IMG/VR virus record: IMGVR_UViG_3300012942_000086
Location: 1 to 37,183 of that record
Length of the DNA stretch: 37,183 nt
From: a virus
Lineage: Duplodnaviria > Caudoviricetes
Direction: 5' to 3' (one strand)
Shown here: positions 6,235 through 37,183 of the stretch, piece by piece
Layout: every line of letters begins with the position of its first letter
How positions within the stretch are numbered: the first letter of the stretch is position 1
Notes under the pieces: model-generated
What the model was told of the DNA's origin: nothing
Seen by the model: the letters and a program-made list of their open reading frames with translations, nothing else
The model's database searches: none
Translations under genes and position numbers: made by a program

Positions 6235-6277
6235 CGCCCCCGTCTGGCCGCGAGTGCGGCTGGGCGGGGGCGCTTTC
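6235..6277 (+). terminator. Intrinsic terminator between convergent genes
   Basis: About 17-bp stem (with G-U pairs), GAGT loop, followed by CTTTC. Confidence 0.7.
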
Positions 6278-6290
6278 GTCGTCTCCGGGG

Positions 6291-6635
6291 TCAGGAGCGG
6301 AGGCAGACGTGGAGGATCTTGTGGCCGACGCAGCTCCCGACGGTGACGTGGTGGTGGCTGCTTCCGCCGCCGGTGGTGGTGGCGGGGGCGGTGTCGGCGG
6401 GGTCGGGCGTATCAGTGTCGGATGGGGCGGGGGTCTCGGGCGTGGCCGAGCTGGGCACGGGCTGCGCCGGGGTGCTGCTCACGGTCGCGGCCGGCGTCGC
6501 CGAGCTGGGCGGGGTGACGTGGGCGCCGATGATGCCGCACACGATCAGGAAGCCGATCACGGCCCCGAGGATGATCATGGGGCGCATGTTGGGGCGTGGC
6601 GCGGTGGTGGGCGGTTGGTAGGGCTGGCGCGGCAT
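6291..6635 (-). CDS. Membrane-anchored Pro/Thr-rich hypothetical protein (moron)
   Basis: TM segment IILGAVIGFLIVCGIIG; SD GAGGGGGA; C-terminal Cys pair. Confidence 0.65.
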   Translation of the reverse strand: MPRQPYQPPTTAPRPNMRPMIILGAVIGFLIVCGIIGAHVTPPSSATPAATVSSTPAQPVPSSATPETPAPSDTDTPDPADTAPATTTGGGSSHHHVTVGSCVGHKILHVCLRS

Positions 6636-6803: not shown

Positions 6804-7358
6804 TCAGTCGAGCATCCGCCGGCGCGCCGCGGCCGCCAGCTCGGACTCCTCGCCCGCGCGGATCTCCGGGTGCTCCGCGTCGAACTCGGCGAGGGCCTGG
6901 CGGGCGGCGGCCTCGCGGGCCGCGTACTCGGCCTCCTCGCCCTGGTGCCAGCGCTGCGGCACCCCGTCCTCGTAGGCGCGGGCTTTCGCGTCGGCCGCGC
7001 CCTCCAGCACCGCGGCGACGGCCTCCGCCAGGCCCCGGCGCTGCGACCCGAGCCGGATCACCTGCGCCTCCGGATTCGCCGCCCGCACGCGCTCGATGGC
7101 GGCCGCCACGGCGGCCGCGTGCTCCGCGGTGAGGACGACCTGGCCGATGTGGTGCGTGCGGTCCGGGAGGTCCACGCCGGCGCGGACCATCCGGGCGCGG
7201 TAGAAGTCGTCGATCTCGGCGAGGACCTTGTCGCGGGTGACGACCTCGCCAGCGCGGCGGACCTCGAGGCGCACCCCGTACCCGCTCAGTTGGGGCTTCA
7301 CGGTGACGGTGATGTCGCCGCTGTCCAGGGGGATGGTGACGGTCTCGGTGGTGCTCAT
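6804..7358 (-). CDS. Hypothetical protein, 184 aa (candidate anti-CRISPR/anti-defence protein)
   Basis: SD AGGAG, good codon usage, has its own operator-bearing promoter. Function inferred from context only. Confidence 0.75.
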   Translation of the reverse strand: MSTTETVTIPLDSGDITVTVKPQLSGYGVRLEVRRAGEVVTRDKVLAEIDDFYRARMVRAGVDLPDRTHHIGQVVLTAEHAAAVAAAIERVRAANPEAQVIRLGSQRRGLAEAVAAVLEGAADAKARAYEDGVPQRWHQGEEAEYAAREAAARQALAEFDAEHPEIRAGEESELAAAARRRMLD

Positions 7359-7406
7359 GGTGTGCTCCTGGGGTGTGGGGCCGGCGGTGTGCTGTCCCGA
7401 TGGCAG

Positions 7407-7438
7407 TAACTTTGCCGCACGTGCGGCAAAGTGTCAAG
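7407..7438 (-). promoter_or_regulatory. Sigma70-type promoter with 24-bp perfect palindromic operator, copy 1
   Basis: Minus strand TTGACA (7437-7432), 17 nt, CAAAGT. Palindrome ACTTTGCCGCACGTGCGGCAAAGT at 7409-7432. 31/32 identical to 8324-8355. Confidence 0.85.
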
Positions 7439-7471
7439 GGGATTCGGCGAGTCGACTTCGGCGGGGAAAAC

Positions 7472-7501
7472 GGAACGGCCGCCCCGGAGGACGGCCGTTC
7501 C
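7472..7501 (-). terminator. Hairpin followed by GTTTT, ending the repeat cassette; its core resembles a type I-C repeat stem
   Basis: GGAACGGCCG-N10-CGGCCGTTCC then GTTTT on the minus strand. Confidence 0.65.
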
Positions 7502-7648
7502 CACACCCTGCATCGGCAGGGACTACCTGCATGTCCGCGATCGGGACCGGGCCCGAGCCGGAACACCCCCACAGCGGCGGGGAGATCGTGCGCGCGTGGG
7601 ACCTGGATCGGGCCTACGCCGGTACACCCCCGCGACGGCGGGGAATCC
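7498..7648 (-). CRISPR. Degenerate type I-E-like mini-array: 3 repeats, 2 spacers, no cas genes
   Basis: Minus-strand repeats GGATTCCCCGCCGTCGCGGGGGTGTACCG (7648-7620), GATCTCCCCGCCGCTGTGGGGGTGTTCCG (7587-7559) and GTAGTCCCTGCCGATGCAGGGTGTGGGAA (7526-7498). Both spacers are exactly 32 nt (7588-7619, 7527-7558). Confidence 0.85.
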
Positions 7649-7710
7649 CCGCGGGCGCGGGGAGCATGCGGTGCTCCATCTGGAGCCATCCCCGCGGGCG
7701 CGGGGAGCAG
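7639..7710 (-). CRISPR. Two type I-E repeats of a second sequence family, separated by a 14-nt pseudo-spacer
   Basis: CTGCTCCCCGCGCCCGCGGGGATGGCTCC (7710-7682) and ATGCTCCCCGCGCCCGCGGGGATTCCCCG (7667-7639). They resemble Streptomyces I-E repeats as I recall them. Confidence 0.85.
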
Positions 7711-7718
7711 TGGTACGG

Positions 7719-7757
7719 ATTGAGATCCTCGGCCGCCCCCGAGAGGGCGACCGCCAC
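7719..7757 (-). CRISPR. Solitary type I-C-like repeat
   Basis: GTGGCGGTCGCCCTCTCGGGGGCGGCCGAGGATCTCAAT versus the recalled Streptomyces I-C repeat GTGGCGGTCGCCCTCCGGGGTGACCGAGGATCGCAAC. Confidence 0.75.
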
Positions 7758-7775
7758 TCCGCCTTGCGGCGGCGT

Positions 7776-8030
7776 CTACGACGGTAGCCCACCGGGGCCG
7801 GCACTGTCTCGCGTTTCGCGGAGATCGGTGCGCGCGCCGCGGCCGGGGGCGGCGGCGTGGGCCGCGCGGACCTGGTCGGCGTCGTAGACGGAGCCGATCC
7901 GGCCGGACTCCAGCCGGCGCTCCCCGCAGGCGCGCACTTCCCAGCGCGAGAGGGTGCGGCGGGCGGCGGCTGGAGTCTGGCCGAGGTGGGCGGCTACCTG
8001 GTTGATGTCCCAGGTCTCGGGGTCGGGCAT
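7776..8030 (-). CDS. Small HTH DNA-binding protein, 84 aa (candidate Aca-like repressor)
   Basis: WDINQVAAHLGQTPAAARRTLSRW HTH; YDADQVRA; C-terminal PGRGARTDL motif; SD GAGAGGA. Confidence 0.75.
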   Translation of the reverse strand: MPDPETWDINQVAAHLGQTPAAARRTLSRWEVRACGERRLESGRIGSVYDADQVRAAHAAAPGRGARTDLRETRDSAGPGGLPS

Positions 8031-8100: not shown

Positions 8101-8274
8101 TCAGGCGCGGTAGACGCCGTCCTCGGTGTGGTCGAGGACGTCGCGGAGCTCCTGCTCGACGCGCTCGGGGAGCTCGTCGCTCTGGCCGATGCCGTCGAGG
8201 AGGGGGCCGCCGAACGCCTCCAGCTCGTGGGGCTGCATGCGGTACTCGGCGGCGATGCTGGCGATGGTGGCCAT
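8101..8274 (-). CDS. Small acidic protein, 57 aa (candidate anti-CRISPR/DNA mimic)
   Basis: ATG 8274 after SD GAGGAG; 13 D/E versus 4 R; first gene behind the promoter. Confidence 0.75.
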   Translation of the reverse strand: MATIASIAAEYRMQPHELEAFGGPLLDGIGQSDELPERVEQELRDVLDHTEDGVYRA

Positions 8275-8323: not shown

Positions 8324-8355
8324 TAACCTTGCCGCACGTGCGGCAAAGTGTCAAG
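8324..8355 (-). promoter_or_regulatory. Promoter with palindromic operator, copy 2
   Basis: TTGACA (8354-8349), 17 nt, CAAGGT. Palindrome TTGCCGCACGTGCGGCAA at 8329-8346. Confidence 0.85.
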
Positions 8356-8357
8356 CC

Positions 8358-8606
8358 CTATCCGCGCCCCGGCTTCGGCCCGACGAAACTCCCCAGCCCC
8401 GGCACGGTGTACGTCCACCCGTCCTCGCGGAGCGCGCGGAGGGCTTTCTGCGCGGTGGCCGCAGCCACGCCGAAATCGGCGTGGAGCGCGACGACGGAGG
8501 GGACGCGCTCCCCGCGCGAGTAGGTGCCGTCCTCGATCCGCGCCACGATCAGGTCGCGCAACTGCTGCCATCGCGGCACGTCAGAGGCCCAGTCGATCTC
8601 ATCCAC
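8358..8606 (-). CDS. GntR-family winged-HTH regulator (DNA-binding domain only)
   Basis: PRWQQLRDLIVARIEDGTYSRGERVPS...FGVAAATAQKALRALREDGWTYTVPGLGSFV. Confidence 0.9.
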   Translation of the reverse strand: MDEIDWASDVPRWQQLRDLIVARIEDGTYSRGERVPSVVALHADFGVAAATAQKALRALREDGWTYTVPGLGSFVGPKPGRG

Positions 8607-8762
8607 ATGGTCACCGTGGCACGCGGCGGCGCACGTCGCGAGCGAGGAATGCTGCGCACGCTATGTATTCCACGGCGTACTAGAGGTACCGTGGCCAGAA
8701 ACGCGAGTGCCCCGGCGCCGCTGTCACGGCCCGGGGCTGGCAGACCAGATGAGGTGGTCCAC

Positions 8763-9227
8763 GTGAGGGATGCTACGGCCCCCGCAGGGTTCTACGCGAG
8801 AGCCCGAACCGGCGTCGACGACGACCCGCAGCCGGATCCGGACCTGCCGCCGGTGTGGCGGCTGGACGCGGTCCCGGAGTCCGTGAGCGCGGCCCGGCGC
8901 GCGGTCGCCGCCCACCTGGACGCCATCGAGATCCTGCCGCCGGAGCGCGCGGCCGAGCTGGTGCTGCTGGTCTCCGAGATGACCACCAACGCCATCAGGT
9001 ACGGGTCCGAGCCGGGCGACTGCATCCAGATCATCTTGATGTCCGACGAGACGGGCGTGCGGGTGGAGGTCCACGACACCAACCGCCGGCCCCCCAGGTT
9101 CAAGCCGGAGTCGGAGGAGCGGCAGCGTGGTCGCGGCCTATACCTGCTCCAGGCGCTCGCGGACAGGTGGGGGACGGGCCCGCGGGTGTTCGGGAAGTAC
9201 GTGTGGGCGGAGATCGACCGCCGATAG
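8763..9227 (+). CDS. HATPase_c (RsbW-like anti-sigma/ATP-binding) protein
   Basis: SVSAARR, LLVSEMTTNAIRYG (N box), VEVHD (G1), RGRGLYLLQALADRWG (G2), GKYVWAE. The start position is approximate. Confidence 0.88.
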   Translation: MRDATAPAGFYARARTGVDDDPQPDPDLPPVWRLDAVPESVSAARRAVAAHLDAIEILPPERAAELVLLVSEMTTNAIRYGSEPGDCIQIILMSDETGVRVEVHDTNRRPPRFKPESEERQRGRGLYLLQALADRWGTGPRVFGKYVWAEIDRR

Positions 9228-9315
9228 AGGCGTCTGCGGGCCCCTCCCCGGGTGTGCCCGCAGATGGCGGCCCCGGGCGCGCGGCGCGTCCCGGGGCCGC
9301 AGCATGTCCCGGCGC

Positions 9316-9582
9316 CTACTCCTCCGGGTGCTCGATCTCCTCGCCCGCGGGCTCGACCGGGTCGGGGTCGCCGCGGACCCATGCGCCGGTCTGGAGGACG
9401 TCGACCAGGCCGCGCGCGTGCAGCTCGACCAGGGCCCGCGCGATGGTTTTCGTCGACACGCCGTGTTCGGCCGCGAGGTCGTAGCGGTTCGGCAGCCGTC
9501 CGCCCGGCCGGAGCCGCCCGGATCGGATGCCGGCCTCGATCGTGTCCGCCACCCGCTCGTACAGGTACCTGGTCTGCCGCAT
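9316..9582 (-). CDS. GntR-family winged-HTH regulator (DNA-binding domain only)
   Basis: YLYERVADTIEAGIRSGRLRPGGRLPNRYDLAAEHGVSTKTIARALVELHARGLV. Confidence 0.9.
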   Translation of the reverse strand: MRQTRYLYERVADTIEAGIRSGRLRPGGRLPNRYDLAAEHGVSTKTIARALVELHARGLVDVLQTGAWVRGDPDPVEPAGEEIEHPEE

Positions 9583-9918: not shown

Positions 9919-11577
9919 CTACTCCGCCCAGGGGTCCGGCTCCCACACCGGGTGAATCTCGATCCGGGTCTGTCCGGAGCCCTCCACGCCCTTCTGGCCG
10001 GCGGCGCCGCGGGTCAGCACGACCCTGCGCACCAGCTCCCGGAGCAGGCGGTTCTTCTCCTCCGCGGTCATGATCTCCCAGGCGTCGAGCAGGCCGAGCA
10101 TGACCGGGCGGACGTCGAGCCGGACCACCTCGGCCGGCGTCTCGCCGAGGCTCGCGAGAGCCTGCCGGGCCTGGTCGCGGCGCTGCATGATCTCGCGCTG
10201 CGCCGCCTCGTACACCTCCGGCGGCATCGCGTCCGGGTGCATGGCGTGCTCGACGGCGAGCCGGGTAAGGGCCTGCCCGGCCCGCTCGACCTCGGCGACC
10301 AGCTTGCCGCGCTCGGCGGCGGCGCGCCGCAGCTGCTCCTCCGGGACGCGGCGTTGCGCGGGGATCGTGGTGGCGGGGGTGGCGTCGATGCCGGCGGCGG
10401 CCTCGCGGGCGAGCCAGATCCTCAGCTCGTCCTCGACGATGGCGCGCTGCACCCACACCGGGGAATCGCAGACGGTCCGGCCGGTGCTGTGGCCCTGGCC
10501 GCAGGACAGGGCGTAGCCGGGGACCTGGCCGCCCTTGCGCCGGGCGCTGGTGGCGTTCGCGCCCCCGCGGCAGTTGCCGCAGCGGGCGAGCCCGGTGGTC
10601 GGGTAGATCGGGTTGCGGGCGCGGGGCGCGGTGCCGCGGATCTCTGCGCGCAGGTCGAGCCAGCGTTCCCAGGTCTCGGGGGTGATCAGGGCCTCGTGCC
10701 TGCCCTCTATGTAGGTCCAGCGGGTGCAGGTGCCCCCGTTGGCCTTGTAGTCGCAGTGGCATTCGGGGTCGTGGATGCGGAGGAGGCCGGCGGGGAATCC
10801 GGTGCGCATGTAGCGGCGTAGGCCGTCGAATTTCCAGAGGCGGCCCCAACCGTTGCGGAGGCCTGCGGCGTTGAGGCGGGCGACGAGGGCGGCGTAGCCG
10901 GTGCGGTGGTCGAGCTGGTCGGTGTAGAGGGCGGCGACGATCGGCGCGGTCTCGGGGTCGGGCTCGTACCACTCGGGCTGGAGAATCCATTTGCCGGGCC
11001 GGGCGGGGTCGGGGATGCGGCGGCGGTGCCAGATGTAGCCGAGGCGCTGGCCGCCGGTGGCGGGGATGCCGTGCTGGCGCCGGAGCGCGTGGGTCTCGCG
11101 CCACTGCTCCCCGGCCCGGTCGGACTCGAAGGCGGCGACCTCAAGGAGCATGCCGCGGGTGAAGCGGCCGGTGGCGGTGCGGGCGTCGACGGCCTCGGTC
11201 GCGGACTGGAGGACGCCGCCGACGCGCTCGACGCGCGCGAGGTTGAGGGCGACGCCGGCCCGGTCGCGGCCGAAGCGGCTGAACTTCCAGACGGCGATGC
11301 CGGCGGCGGCGCCTTCCTCGATGGCGGTGATGCCCTGCATGATGCGGCGCTTGAAGTTCCGGCCGGTGGCGTCGAGGTCGGTGATCCAGCCGATGATGCG
11401 GTGCCCGTTGCGGTTGGCCCAGGAGGTGATTGCCTCGGCCTGGATTTCGGGACTGATGGCCTCCTCGCGCCAGGTGGAGACGCGGACGTAGCCGATGTAC
11501 GGGGTGCCGTCGGGGGGGCCGGCGGGCGGCCCCTCGATGGCGTACTGGGACAGGTCGGGCGGTAGGTGGATGGTCAC
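9919..11577 (-). CDS. int: Large serine recombinase (integrase)
   Basis: YIGYVRVST catalytic Ser, VWKFSRFGR, recombinase domain, CGNC..C..C zinc ribbon, coiled coil. GTG 11577 overlaps the upstream stop. Confidence 0.95.
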   Translation of the reverse strand: MTIHLPPDLSQYAIEGPPAGPPDGTPYIGYVRVSTWREEAISPEIQAEAITSWANRNGHRIIGWITDLDATGRNFKRRIMQGITAIEEGAAAGIAVWKFSRFGRDRAGVALNLARVERVGGVLQSATEAVDARTATGRFTRGMLLEVAAFESDRAGEQWRETHALRRQHGIPATGGQRLGYIWHRRRIPDPARPGKWILQPEWYEPDPETAPIVAALYTDQLDHRTGYAALVARLNAAGLRNGWGRLWKFDGLRRYMRTGFPAGLLRIHDPECHCDYKANGGTCTRWTYIEGRHEALITPETWERWLDLRAEIRGTAPRARNPIYPTTGLARCGNCRGGANATSARRKGGQVPGYALSCGQGHSTGRTVCDSPVWVQRAIVEDELRIWLAREAAAGIDATPATTIPAQRRVPEEQLRRAAAERGKLVAEVERAGQALTRLAVEHAMHPDAMPPEVYEAAQREIMQRRDQARQALASLGETPAEVVRLDVRPVMLGLLDAWEIMTAEEKNRLLRELVRRVVLTRGAAGQKGVEGSGQTRIEIHPVWEPDPWAE

Positions 11578-11885
11578 AGGCTGTTCCGCTGGGTTTCGGG
11601 TGGGGCGGGGCGCTGGATGGGGGTGACGGTGGCGCTGGCCATGTGCTGCACGGCCTGGGCGTAGCCGGTGGCCTGGTCGCGGTCGCGGCGGGCGTCCATG
11701 CGGCGGACGGTGTAGCGCCACCATGCGGCGAACAGGGCGGGGACGGTGGGGGTGAGTGCGAGGACTCCCAGGGTCATGGGGCCGGTGAGGTGGAGCGCTG
11801 CGCCGGTGAGGGCGAGGGTGATGGCGGCCGTGAGGATTCCGCTGAGGGCGAGGCAGAGGTGGTGGAGGTGGCGCGCGCTCATCAT
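11574..11885 (-). CDS. Two-TM membrane protein in the repressor-integrase operon
   Basis: MMSARHLHHLCLALSGILTAAITLALTGAAL...; SD AGGAG. Confidence 0.65.
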   Translation of the reverse strand: MMSARHLHHLCLALSGILTAAITLALTGAALHLTGPMTLGVLALTPTVPALFAAWWRYTVRRMDARRDRDQATGYAQAVQHMASATVTPIQRPAPPETQRNSL

Positions 11886-35395: not shown

Positions 35396-37183
35396 GTGGG
35401 AATGACCGTCGGCGACCTGGTCGCGTATTTCCGGGTGGACACGAGCGCGGGGGACGCCGGTATCGCCGCCGCCGGGGCCGAGATGGCCGCCCTGGCCAAG
35501 TCGGCCGACGGCAACATGGCCGCCATCGAGAAGTCGTCCGGGGGCGCGGGGAAGGCGCTGGGGGACGCGCTCACGCAGGGCGCGAAGGCGGCCGGCCGCG
35601 CGGTGGATGGGGCGGCGCGGGACATCGCCCCGACGCTCGGCCGCGGCCTGGATGACGCGGCGCGGGACACGGCGCAGGGCGCAGAGCGGCTCGGCGCGGG
35701 CCTCGGCCGCACCCTCCTGGACAGCCTCGGCGGGGCGCTCAAGGGCATCGGCAGCAGCGTGACGGGGGCGCTGGGCACGGTCGGCGGCAAGATCGGCTCC
35801 GGTATCACCGACGCCGCCAAGGCAGCCCTCACCAAGGGGCTACCGGACGCGGCGTCGAGCGTCCTCGGCGCGATGAAGATCCCCACGGGGGCCATGTCGT
35901 CCAACCCGTATGTGGCCGCGGCGGGCGTGGCGCTGGCCGCCGCCATCGTGACCACCGCCGCCCCCGCGATCGGCGCGCTCCTTTCCGCGGCGACGATCTC
36001 CCTTGCGGGGATCGGCGTGATCGGCCTCGGCGCGGCGCTGCTCAAGGACAAGCCGGAGATCCAGTCGGCGATCAAGAAGCTGACCAGCACCGCCAAGAGC
36101 GAGTTGACGGCGGACGCGCAGCCGATGGTGAAGCCGCTCAAGGACGCCATCAACGGAGCGATGGGCGTCTTGAAGGACCCGACCGTCACGGCCGAGCTGA
36201 AGCAGGCTTTCCAGAGCGCTGCGGGGGACATCAAGCCGCTGTCCGACGGCCTCGACAACTTCGTCAAGAACGTCTTGCCCGGCTTCACGGCCGCGGTGCA
36301 GAACTCCGGCCCCGTCTTCCAGGCGATCGGCCAGGCGATGGGCAGCCTCGGCAGGTCGCTGGGGACAGCCCTGTCGATCATCAGCAAGGACGGCCCCGGC
36401 TCGGCGCAGATCATCGGCGACATCGCCACCGTCCTCGGCGGCCTCGTCGTTGCCGCCGCCGAGACCATCTCCGGCCTGACTCGCGCCTACACCACCGTCC
36501 GCGGCTGGATCATGGACGTCTACGGCCTGTTTGTTTGGCTCTACGACGAGTTGGTCGGGCACAGCGTGGTACCCGACATGGTCAACGCCATCATCCGCTG
36601 GATCGCGAGCCTGCCGGGGCGCGCGGCGGGGGCGCTTGCCGGCCTCGGCGGCGCCGTCCTCGGCAAGGTCTCCTCGGCGATGTCGTCTATGGTGTCCTCG
36701 GTGTCGTCGCACCTGTCGAGCGCGGTCCGCACCCTCGCCGGGCTCCCGGGCCGGGCCGTCTCTGCGATCGGCAACCTCGGCGGCCTGCTCTGGTCGGCCG
36801 GGTCATCGCTGATCGGCGGCCTGATCAACGGCATCGAGTCCGAGGTCGGCAACCTGCGCGGCCTGCTCGGCAGCATCACGAGCTGGATCCCGGACTGGAA
36901 GGGGCCGGCGGACCTCGATGCCCGGCTCCTGACGCCGAACGGCCGCCTGATCATGAAGGGCCTCACGACCGGCATCGCGGCTGGCGTGCCCGACGTCCGC
37001 GCGCAGCTCGGCGGATCACCGCCGGCATCCCCGGCATGGTCGGCACCGGCAGCCCCGCGGCCGCCGCAGCGACGGCGGCCGGGCCGGTCACGCTGCACAT
37101 CAACCTCGGCGGCCAGAAGATCGCCGAGGTCGTCCTCGACCCGCTGCGGAAGGCCATCGCGACCCGCGGCGGCAACGTCCAAG
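35396..37183 (+). CDS. Tape measure protein; continues across the circular junction; apparent 1-bp deletion near 37014
   Basis: GTG at 35396 after SD GGAGGAG. Ala/Gly-rich helical sequence (MTVGDLVAYFRVDT...WIPDWKGP) directly after the tail chaperones. No stop before the window end. Confidence 0.88.
   Translation, partial: MGMTVGDLVAYFRVDTSAGDAGIAAAGAEMAALAKSADGNMAAIEKSSGGAGKALGDALTQGAKAAGRAVDGAARDIAPTLGRGLDDAARDTAQGAERLGAGLGRTLLDSLGGALKGIGSSVTGALGTVGGKIGSGITDAAKAALTKGLPDAASSVLGAMKIPTGAMSSNPYVAAAGVALAAAIVTTAAPAIGALLSAATISLAGIGVIGLGAALLKDKPEIQSAIKKLTSTAKSELTADAQPMVKPLKDAINGAMGVLKDPTVTAELKQAFQSAAGDIKPLSDGLDNFVKNVLPGFTAAVQNSGPVFQAIGQAMGSLGRSLGTALSIISKDGPGSAQIIGDIATVLGGLVVAAAETISGLTRAYTTVRGWIMDVYGLFVWLYDELVGHSVVPDMVNAIIRWIASLPGRAAGALAGLGGAVLGKVSSAMSSMVSSVSSHLSSAVRTLAGLPGRAVSAIGNLGGLLWSAGSSLIGGLINGIESEVGNLRGLLGSITSWIPDWKGPADLDARLLTPNGRLIMKGLTTGIAAGVPDVRAQLGGSPPASPAWSAPAAPRPPQRRRPGRSRCTSTSAARRSPRSSSTRCGRPSRPAAATSK
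37061..37183 (+). repeat. 123-bp terminal direct repeat, right copy
   Basis: Identical to 1-123. Confidence 0.97.

Follow-up and report, generated by a model that had tools for sequence, protein, structure and literature searches.

A cas-less chain of type I-C and type I-E repeat mimics in a temperate phage: a candidate broad RNA anti-CRISPR

INTRODUCTION

Why would a phage in which no cas gene can be detected encode a closely packed series of CRISPR-like repeats, each different from the next and drawn from more than one CRISPR subtype? We asked this of a cassette that packs six repeat units into 260 nt and lies in a phage contig analyzed over its whole length of 37,183 nt, which we call the window.

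Several kinds of RNA bear on this question. Solitary repeat units (Racrs), including RacrIC1, RacrIE1 and RacrIE2, act as RNA anti-CRISPRs (Camara-Wilpert et al. 2023, PMC10651486), and the search reported in that study excluded repeats associated with other repeats (PMC10651486). Polycistronic viral arrays of crRNA-like units, the Cracr arrays, repress cas genes and titrate Cas proteins (Liu et al., bioRxiv 10.1101/2024.10.29.618823); by the main account given there, co-encoded Cracrs always address one CRISPR type or subtype, and the mapped targets are promoters. Mini-arrays have also been described in hosts, as CreR/crlRNA units, and in viruses (Shmakov et al., bioRxiv 10.1101/2023.03.03.530964).

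Our reading, to which we give an even chance, is that we are dealing with a series of imitation repeats for type I-C and two type I-E lineages, unaccompanied by cas genes, that serves as a broad RNA anti-CRISPR made of decoys and guides. It starts from what can be observed directly, namely the anatomy of the cassette, the families of its repeats, the lack of detectable cas genes and the fact that mixed cassettes turn up again in viruses unrelated to this one.

RESULTS AND DISCUSSION

The cassette lies in a temperate phage without detectable cas genes

The window is an entire circular contig, its start sequence recurring at about position 37061, and belongs to a temperate siphophage with a GC content of 73%. 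Its terminase is 66 to 69% identical to those of the Streptomyces phages ToastyFinz, SV1 and Picard, and its capsid relatives are named mostly from Streptomyces; from this kinship we infer a host in the Streptomycetaceae. A Pfam scan of the ORFs placed a serine integrase at 9919-11724. The cassette occupies the minus strand between the lysis region and the integrase, behind a 57-amino-acid ORF (ORF57) and an ORF of the helix-turn-helix (HTH) type, and has identical promoter/operator-like sites of 26 nt on both sides (Table 1). The preliminary description of this DNA, made from the letters and a list of ORFs, had called the genome cas-less, and our searches agree: tblastn with 12 Cas proteins gave no match at E ≤ 1e-3, and none of the 25 phage ORFs put through Pfam fell in a Cas family. 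The cassette is encoded on a mobile element together with the terminase, capsid and serine integrase, away from cas genes.

Other features of this part of the phage were noted. Between the cassette and the integrase (8358-9582), a divergent ORF that resembles ATP-binding proteins of the anti-sigma type has a small GntR-family HTH gene on either side. A 114-amino-acid membrane-anchored ORF at 6291-6635 has no reliable family match. The terminator-like stretch after the lysis genes (6235-6282) is 81% identical to positions 2620-2663 of locus L177, directly behind the mimic array found there.

Table 1. Features of the cassette and its surroundings in the window
Feature	Position	Strand	Remarks
Candidate promoter P1 (TTGACA) with palindromic operator-like site	8324-8354	minus	Upstream of ORF57 and the HTH ORF
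ORF57, 57-aa acidic ORF	8101-8274	minus	Acr candidate by position only
HTH-type ORF, 84 aa, predicted DNA-binding	7776-8030	minus	PHROG 597 "DNA binding protein," E 4.7e-5
Cassette leader	7759-7815	minus	Candidate internal promoter, -10-like TACCGT at 7786-7781
C1, type I-C repeat mimic	7757-7719	minus	2-nt insertion and 2 changes in the 11-nt handle
Linker, 8 nt	7711-7718	minus	Too short for a guide; about 0-1 nt at this place in L402
E1, type I-E repeat mimic, lineage alpha	7710-7682	minus	27/29 to host arrays
14-nt spacer	7668-7681	minus	Equals 32 minus three Cas7 steps
E2, alpha-lineage I-E repeat	7667-7639	minus	24/29; handle replaced by start of E3
E3, I-E mimic, lineage beta	7648-7620	minus	24/29 to beta arrays; near-canonical 8-nt handle
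Spacer S1, 32 nt	7619-7588	minus	Antisense reading WDLDRAYA
E4, beta-lineage repeat	7587-7559	minus	25/29; perfect handle, G-U pair in stem
Spacer S2, 32 nt	7558-7527	minus	Antisense reading RDRDRARA; 19/32 identical to S1
E5, degenerate terminal repeat	7526-7498	minus	20/29 at best; 6-bp stem fold
13-bp hairpin followed by GTTTT (likely terminator)	7501-7467 (hairpin 7501-7472)	minus	-27.9 kcal/mol
Second promoter/operator copy	7407-7437	minus	Ahead of a 184-aa ORF at 7358-6804

Six different repeat units are packed together with their stems kept

All repeats in the cassette differ, and the gaps between successive units are 8, 14, -10, 32 and 32 nt, unlike a canonical CRISPR array with its leader, cas genes and identical repeats at constant spacing. 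The positions and the shared minus-strand orientation of the units are as the preliminary description had them, and its remark that the stems are kept was borne out: every stem is retained, with compensatory or G-U pairs. A type I-C handle is 11 nt long, and C1 carries an altered one. The negative gap is the 10-nt overlap of E2 with E3, which makes these spacer-less tandem hairpins; overlapped repeats are also present in loci L161 and L195. The last three I-E repeats had been described as divergent and separated by 32-nt spacers, and this stands for the divergence and for S1 and S2, but E5 can be called a repeat only in a degenerate sense: its handle is lost, and its stem is retained through a compensatory pair.

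I-E stem motifs occur five times in the 37-kb window, always inside the cassette, while 100 Markov simulations averaged 0.32 and never exceeded 2. The region 7455-7790 folds with a z score of -3.24, and none of 100 shuffles was as stable. Special self-folding of S1 and S2 was considered and dropped, as 41% and 17%, respectively, of GC-matched host spacers fold as well. Contigs from four other runs match 7172-7595, 7449-7662, 7678-7831 and 7710-7907 with 0 to 1 differences, positions 7663-7677 lying outside the cassette pieces so listed. An Rfam search of the cassette returned no relevant family, and the terminator scanner made no call at the hairpin at 7501-7472, which by its stem and GTTTT tail is nevertheless likely to be a terminator.

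The units copy host repeats of type I-C and of two type I-E lineages

We compared E1-E5 with 48 distinct consensus repeats taken from 71 host loci, and C1 with a profile of host I-C repeats. C1 matches repeats of I-C arrays from Streptomycetaceae at 35 of 37 positions (profile E 1.7e-6), and because a host array that resembles it adjoins cas5c, cas8c and cas7c, we assign C1 to type I-C. Against the host I-E profile, E values were 3.8e-5 for E1, 1.8e-4 for E2, 0.006 for E3 and 0.24 for E4; E5 was not reported at E ≤ 10. Thus, the proposal that the repeats belong to real I-C and I-E families was confirmed with families whose cas genes adjoin the arrays. However, the I-E repeats, described at first as a single kind, are of two: E1 and E2 are nearest to a lineage that we call alpha, whose arrays flank cse1, cas7e and cas1e in one host locus (L243), and E3 and E4 are nearest to a second lineage, beta, one of whose arrays adjoins a complete I-E operon. 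Cas7 proteins are 35% identical between alpha and beta and 67 to 71% identical within beta. The closing hairpin had been credited with an I-C-like core; the hairpin, the GTTTT and an identity of 20 of 22 positions to the I-C stem are there, yet the I-C profile scores it at only E = 3, so we treat it as a terminator of uncertain origin.

Cse1 scored above cut-off in 136 of 301 Streptomycetaceae genomes (about 45%), and Cas5c was matched in 16 of the 301, 13 of which have Cse1 as well. With I-E in about 45% of genomes and most I-C carriers also holding I-E, a phage of these hosts faces several CRISPR systems together, and a 300-nt RNA cassette that covers them all would be a compact answer. In the host loci themselves, CreR-like units were seen between cas3 and cse1 on the opposite strand, at 10194-10290 in L246, 5816-5912 in L247 and 7522-7620 in L249.

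A leader and twin operator-like sites accompany the cassette

The 26 nt at P1 are identical to 7437-7412, a match reached by 0 of 100 shuffles; P1 was read by eye, and a sigma-70 scanner called no promoter there. ORF57 has no Pfam or PHROG family and no match to an Acr family. Among 1.84 billion representatives it has 10 other matches, two of which are probably spurious long proteins, and one homologue is fused to an HTH domain that scores above the Aca2/YdiL cut-off. The 84-amino-acid HTH protein, for which we found 20 homologues, likely binds both operator copies. Taken by sequence, ORF57, the HTH ORF and the twin operators resemble an acr-aca layout, a likeness for which the one ORF57 homologue fused to an Aca2-like HTH is the sole support. 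The 184-amino-acid ORF behind the second copy belongs to no known family. A viral mimic-array locus (L195) carries a homologue of the HTH ORF, and a motif scan found the repeat cassette in none of 77 loci that encode such homologues.

The cassette leader holds a GCAA-loop hairpin (7772-7759) and aligns with the leader of a mixed cassette in another virus (L402), with 0 of 2,000 shuffles scoring as high; the flanks of the two phages gave no blastn match to each other. A motif of the form TGTCRG-N10-TA, which we take to be a promoter type of the actinobacterial DNA-damage response, was seen upstream of host cas genes (L122 and L245-L249) and upstream of the L195 array (near 2670-2640). The window leader has a looser version of it at 7802-7781, with a spacing of 11 nt.

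Mixed cassettes recur in unrelated viruses

The cassette belongs to a wide family of mimic arrays in actinophages. Scanning IMG/VR for two I-E hairpins 3 to 33 nt apart gave 117 loci, many of them cas-less arrays of all-different repeats; others, REP-like or ordinary arrays, were then removed by GC content and handle shape. The lengths of the 117 filtered family spacers peak at 14-15 nt (16 spacers), 20 nt (51) and 32 nt (22), in a scan that selected for spacers of up to 20 nt, and fall on 6-nt steps. On such Cas7 steps Cascade assembles without cleaving, and shortened or partly matched I-E guides neither lock nor cleave, as reported in PMC6859484.

By eye, mixed I-C/I-E cassettes are present in at least five unrelated viruses (L156, L220/L402, L393, L396 and L397), with I-C units inside I-E arrays in L156 and L220, the latter being the same element as L402. 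A scan for an I-C handle next to an I-E stem gave 12 viral matches, of which those in L393, L396, L397 and L402 are real by eye and the other 8 were discarded as coincidental; applied to 301 host genomes, the pattern gave 3 matches, none of them a cassette by eye. A motif tally of 87 GC-rich loci found 6 with an I-C handle no more than 150 nt from an I-E stem, L157, L169 and L178 being counted by motif alone. The preliminary description had advised looking for cassettes in related prophages. Locus L402, in an unrelated phage, has the homologous leader and the order of the window cassette: a promoter-like leader, the GCAA hairpin, an I-C repeat, almost no spacer and an I-E repeat. The 77 loci with HTH homologues yielded none by motif scan. 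Searches of IMG/VR for exact or near-exact cassette patterns found none, flanking proteins led to no viral loci (HTH alone, and the 184-amino-acid ORF) or to three weak ones (GntR), and profile searches of the cultured relatives ToastyFinz and SV1 returned no real I-C unit.

Six of 114 family spacers match cas loci over at least 13 positions beside AAG or AAC, where shuffles gave 0.25 with a maximum of 3; the other 108 have no cas match. By the account of Cracr arrays in bioRxiv 10.1101/2024.10.29.618823, matches of this kind are their signature. Five of the six (from L230, L164, L177, L181 and L138) match non-coding parts of cas loci. The sixth, a 20-nt spacer of L229, agrees at 18 of 20 positions with cas7 codons for NLNRDD in a host locus (L260), beside an AAC PAM, and in a comparison with L260, L263, L264, L272 and L249 its flipped positions fall on codon wobble. 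Judged by sequence, L229 offers a clear example of a virus-encoded guide directed at cas coding sequence.

Other regularities of the family were noted. Chimeric units, in which an 11-nt I-C handle directly joins an I-E stem or tiny hairpin and leads into a spacer and then an I-E terminal hairpin, occur in L151 (near 206-240), L396, L397 and L393 (near 3001). One recurring spacer family of 14-15 nt (GCTTGnTACT-like) is shared by L151, L156, L157, L165, L169, L175, L177, L178 and L230, and another of 20 nt (nnnnnnAGGGGYGT-like) by L137, L157, L164, L177, L181, L194, L195, L215 and L236; neither has a target among 146 cas loci. The idea that the 14-nt family has one target common to all hosts was rejected (4 of 81 genomes versus 4 controls).

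Spacer target searches give a lead to cas3

No full-length protospacer of S1 or S2 was found in 50,697 phage records (best E 0.9-3) or in 72,556 plasmids (best E 0.2-0.7), and the genome of the phage itself contains no PAM-flanked seed for any spacer. In 146 I-E loci, the non-coding parts gave the window spacers a single 10-position match, at chance level, and the cas promoters of 31 I-C loci gave none; the 14-nt spacer had no target in these searches, and six I-C units tested in the 31 I-C loci had none either. Partial spacer matches in 301 genomes looked like chance and were set aside. AAG followed by the seed occurred at chance in 121 genomes (for S1 and S2, 6 versus 3 and 4 versus 4 controls), and an 18-position match beside AAG falls outside any cas context (L382). 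Reading the S1 and S2 antisense peptides as glyoxalase/VOC, prompted by what we presumed to be a motif of that family, was not supported either: there was no Pfam match at E ≤ 10, for peptides too short to make a profile test fair, and no seed enrichment in 121 genomes.

S1 and S2 are related to each other, their identity being reached by 19 of 20,000 shuffles. A scan without masking gave, as the best of about ten tests, a match of S2 to a site in L316 flanked by AAC, equaled by 1% of shuffles. This site is antisense to cas3 and falls in the stretch for the HD domain, immediately ahead of the HD motif. Beta-lineage Cas3 has D-L-D-R-A-R-A before the HD motif, and the antisense peptides of both spacers stand in the same register: that of S1 resembles ELDRARA/DLDRARA in Cas3, and that of S2 resembles ERDRARA/DRERARA. 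Both spacers follow beta repeats, and the Cas3 that they resemble is that of the beta lineage. Across five other full beta operons, the peptide score of S2 was reached by 0.8% of 500 shuffles and by 5 of 337 real host spacers, and that of S1 by 15% of shuffles and by 82 of 337, which is not significant alone.

We also scored the matches with wobble positions ignored, using the 14 non-wobble positions of the first 20, a score chosen after the match was seen. On this score S2 fits the L316 site at 14 of 14 positions, which 0 of 1,000 shuffles and none of the other 99 spacers reached, and it fits the cas3 of L475 (ERDRARA, PAM AGC) equally well; at the cas3 of L470 and L474 (ELDRARA), S1 fits at 12 of 14 and S2 at 13 of 14, with S1 mismatched at seed positions 4-5. 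The best result among 37,950 PAM sites in 230 non-cas loci was 11 of 14. Of five further plasmid cas3 genes examined, two fit S1 and S2 poorly, and L and R variants across the five track the difference between S1 and S2 at position 16.

Several features weigh on the other side. No cas3 locus has a perfect seed with a canonical PAM: at beta-lineage sites the PAM is AGC, ACC or GTG, with one AAC beside a poor seed; the AAC site of L316 is part of a system whose repeat is a different one, and S2 is mismatched there at seed position 3; and S1 is mismatched at positions 4-5 in every cas3 seen. Cascade tolerates mismatches at every sixth position, not every third, and does not ignore those at positions 3 and 9, so wobble scoring is looser than the biology. 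In addition, helices rich in R and A are common in GC-rich proteomes. We therefore regard cas3 targeting by S1 and S2, a post hoc observation, as a good lead and not as a result; granted that the cassette is an anti-CRISPR, the case for a cas3 target is about evenly balanced.

How the cassette may act

We propose that the cassette functions in the manner of a Cracr array to which Racr-like units have been added. A single RNA would be made, either from a start in the internal leader (about 7815-7759) or by transcription that continues from the promoter at 8354, which bears the operator. At the 3' base of each stem it would be cut by the host enzymes Cas5c and Cas6e, as expected from the known behavior of both, with the Cas6 rule taken from PMC10651486. 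The C1-E1 piece, which joins an I-C handle, 8 nt and an I-E hairpin, would tie up Cas proteins, and the piece with the 14-nt spacer and the 19-nt E2/E3 hairpin would trap them likewise, so that Cas5c, Cas6e and Cas7 would be held in complexes unable to cleave DNA, as with Racrs. Two 61-nt RNAs (E3-S1-E4 and E4-S2-E5) could load beta-lineage Cascade, which in the weakest step of the scheme would park on the non-template strand of cas3 with about 20 matched bases, before the HD-motif codons, and block cas3 transcription without triggering cleavage. In L110 the site lies some 180 nt inside the ORF. The I-E Cascade of Streptomyces represses with spacers on the non-template strand (PMC11560957); a match of about 20 bp is too short to lock and cleave (PMC6859484), yet its position is one from which repression can occur (PMC11560957), in so far as these reports describe it. 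A fuller version, to which we lend tentative credence short of an even chance, is that actinophages use one-transcript multi-subtype cassettes in which I-C and alpha decoys cut by Cas5c and Cas6e, chimeric RNAs and allele-matched CRISPRi guides on cas codons (cas3 here, cas7 in L229) would together disarm the nuclease across strains.

Could the units simply be stacked Racrs that only soak up Cas5c, Cas6e and Cas7, the likeness to cas3 being chance? Three of the five junctions (8 nt, 14 nt and the overlap) are incompatible with a normal guide, the I-C unit is spacer-less in L402 as well, no perfect target was found, and a non-targeting crRNA alone lowered interference in the experiments of PMC10651486. 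Nonetheless, E3 and E4 have near-perfect handles at an exact 32-nt spacing, the codon-like relation of S1 to S2 tracks natural Cas3 polymorphism, and family spacers match cas loci above chance, and we consider a pure decoy cluster unlikely, although worth keeping in mind. An ordinary Cracr array, in which S1, S2 and the 14-nt spacer mimic CreR RNAs and repress the cas promoters of an unsampled host lineage, would fit the CreR-like two-repeat units of beta loci, in which, by eye, spacers of 32-33 nt match the sequence upstream of cse1 in the same locus next to AAG, and the viral spacers of the five loci named above, which match such regions. For the window spacers, however, the non-coding parts of I-E loci hold just one chance-level match, and a search of a metagenome collection for the repeat joined to the shared seed returned this contig alone, so to us this possibility looks decidedly unlikely.

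An interviral mini-array, with S1 and S2 guiding host Cascade-Cas3 to cut competing phages or plasmids, has for it their canonical length and handles and the precedent of virus-targeting viral mini-arrays (bioRxiv 10.1101/2023.03.03.530964); it is improbable given the lack of a full-length protospacer in the phage and plasmid collections, repeats that all differ, unlike those of an acquiring array, and I-C, 14-nt and overlapped units that it leaves unexplained. That the cassette is what decay has left of captured arrays and no longer has a function, as degenerate repeats and mostly targetless spacers might suggest, is very hard to credit, with all stems kept through compensatory or G-U pairs, the leader, hairpin and I-C/I-E order conserved in an unrelated phage, and family spacer lengths on 6-nt steps.

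Relation to known systems

Our preferred reading, an RNA anti-CRISPR of decoys and guides, borrows from several described systems. With Cracr arrays as they are presented in bioRxiv 10.1101/2024.10.29.618823, the cassette shares being cas-less, phage-borne and multi-unit, degenerate repeats with stems kept, a degenerate last repeat with a terminator, partial matches to cas loci, examples of type I-E and hosts in the Actinomycetota. At least two of its repeat-like units match host CRISPR repeats. It differs from them in mixing I-C with two I-E lineages (C1 against E1-E4), in having spacer-less units, and in that its best target lead is the cas3 coding sequence, with no promoter target found. 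Cracr targets are recognized by at least 9 PAM-proximal matches to a CreR/CreA spacer of the host or to a cas promoter, and here the one candidate was the 10-position chance-level match among 146 I-E loci, from sampled hosts that may not include the phage's own.

Like Racrs as reported in PMC10651486, the cassette offers phage mimics of I-C and I-E repeats that follow small ORFs in what may be an acr-type locus, and its spacer-less units C1, E1 and E2/E3 look like decoys; unlike them, it is not solitary, and two of its units are complete crRNA-shaped guides. CreR/crlRNA mini-arrays as described in bioRxiv 10.1101/2023.03.03.530964 likewise have repeat-spacer-degenerate-repeat units, which bind without cutting, but these lie inside cas loci and belong to one subtype, whereas the window cassette is on a phage. 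Phage proteins called CasPRs bind cas coding regions and block RNA polymerase, according to bioRxiv 10.64898/2026.02.23.707548. Roadblock silencing within cas coding sequence is what we propose for S1 and S2, except that the roadblock would be host Cascade steered by phage RNA in place of a protein.

The preliminary description knew of no polycistronic, multi-subtype cassette. Polycistronic viral arrays are known as Cracr arrays, and that half of the claim falls away; the Cracr text gives one type or subtype per array, and subtype mixing is therefore the part not described there. We found no mixed I-C/I-E viral array and no RNA guide to cas coding sequence in the literature that we searched, and the Cracr supplementary tables could list such cases.

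If guides of this kind land on conserved cas coding motifs, Cracr biology would extend from promoter mimicry to coding-region roadblocks. A search rule would also follow for targetless spacers of viral mini-arrays, which is to translate the spacer and compare it with Cas proteins, and endogenous I-E tools in Streptomyces would gain a small off-switch. A cas-less mini-array with divergent I-E repeats and spacers of about 20 nt was also seen beside a tRNA-like gene in a Streptomyces genome (L080, G001:C486, positions 1450-1640), where it is probably part of a prophage or island.
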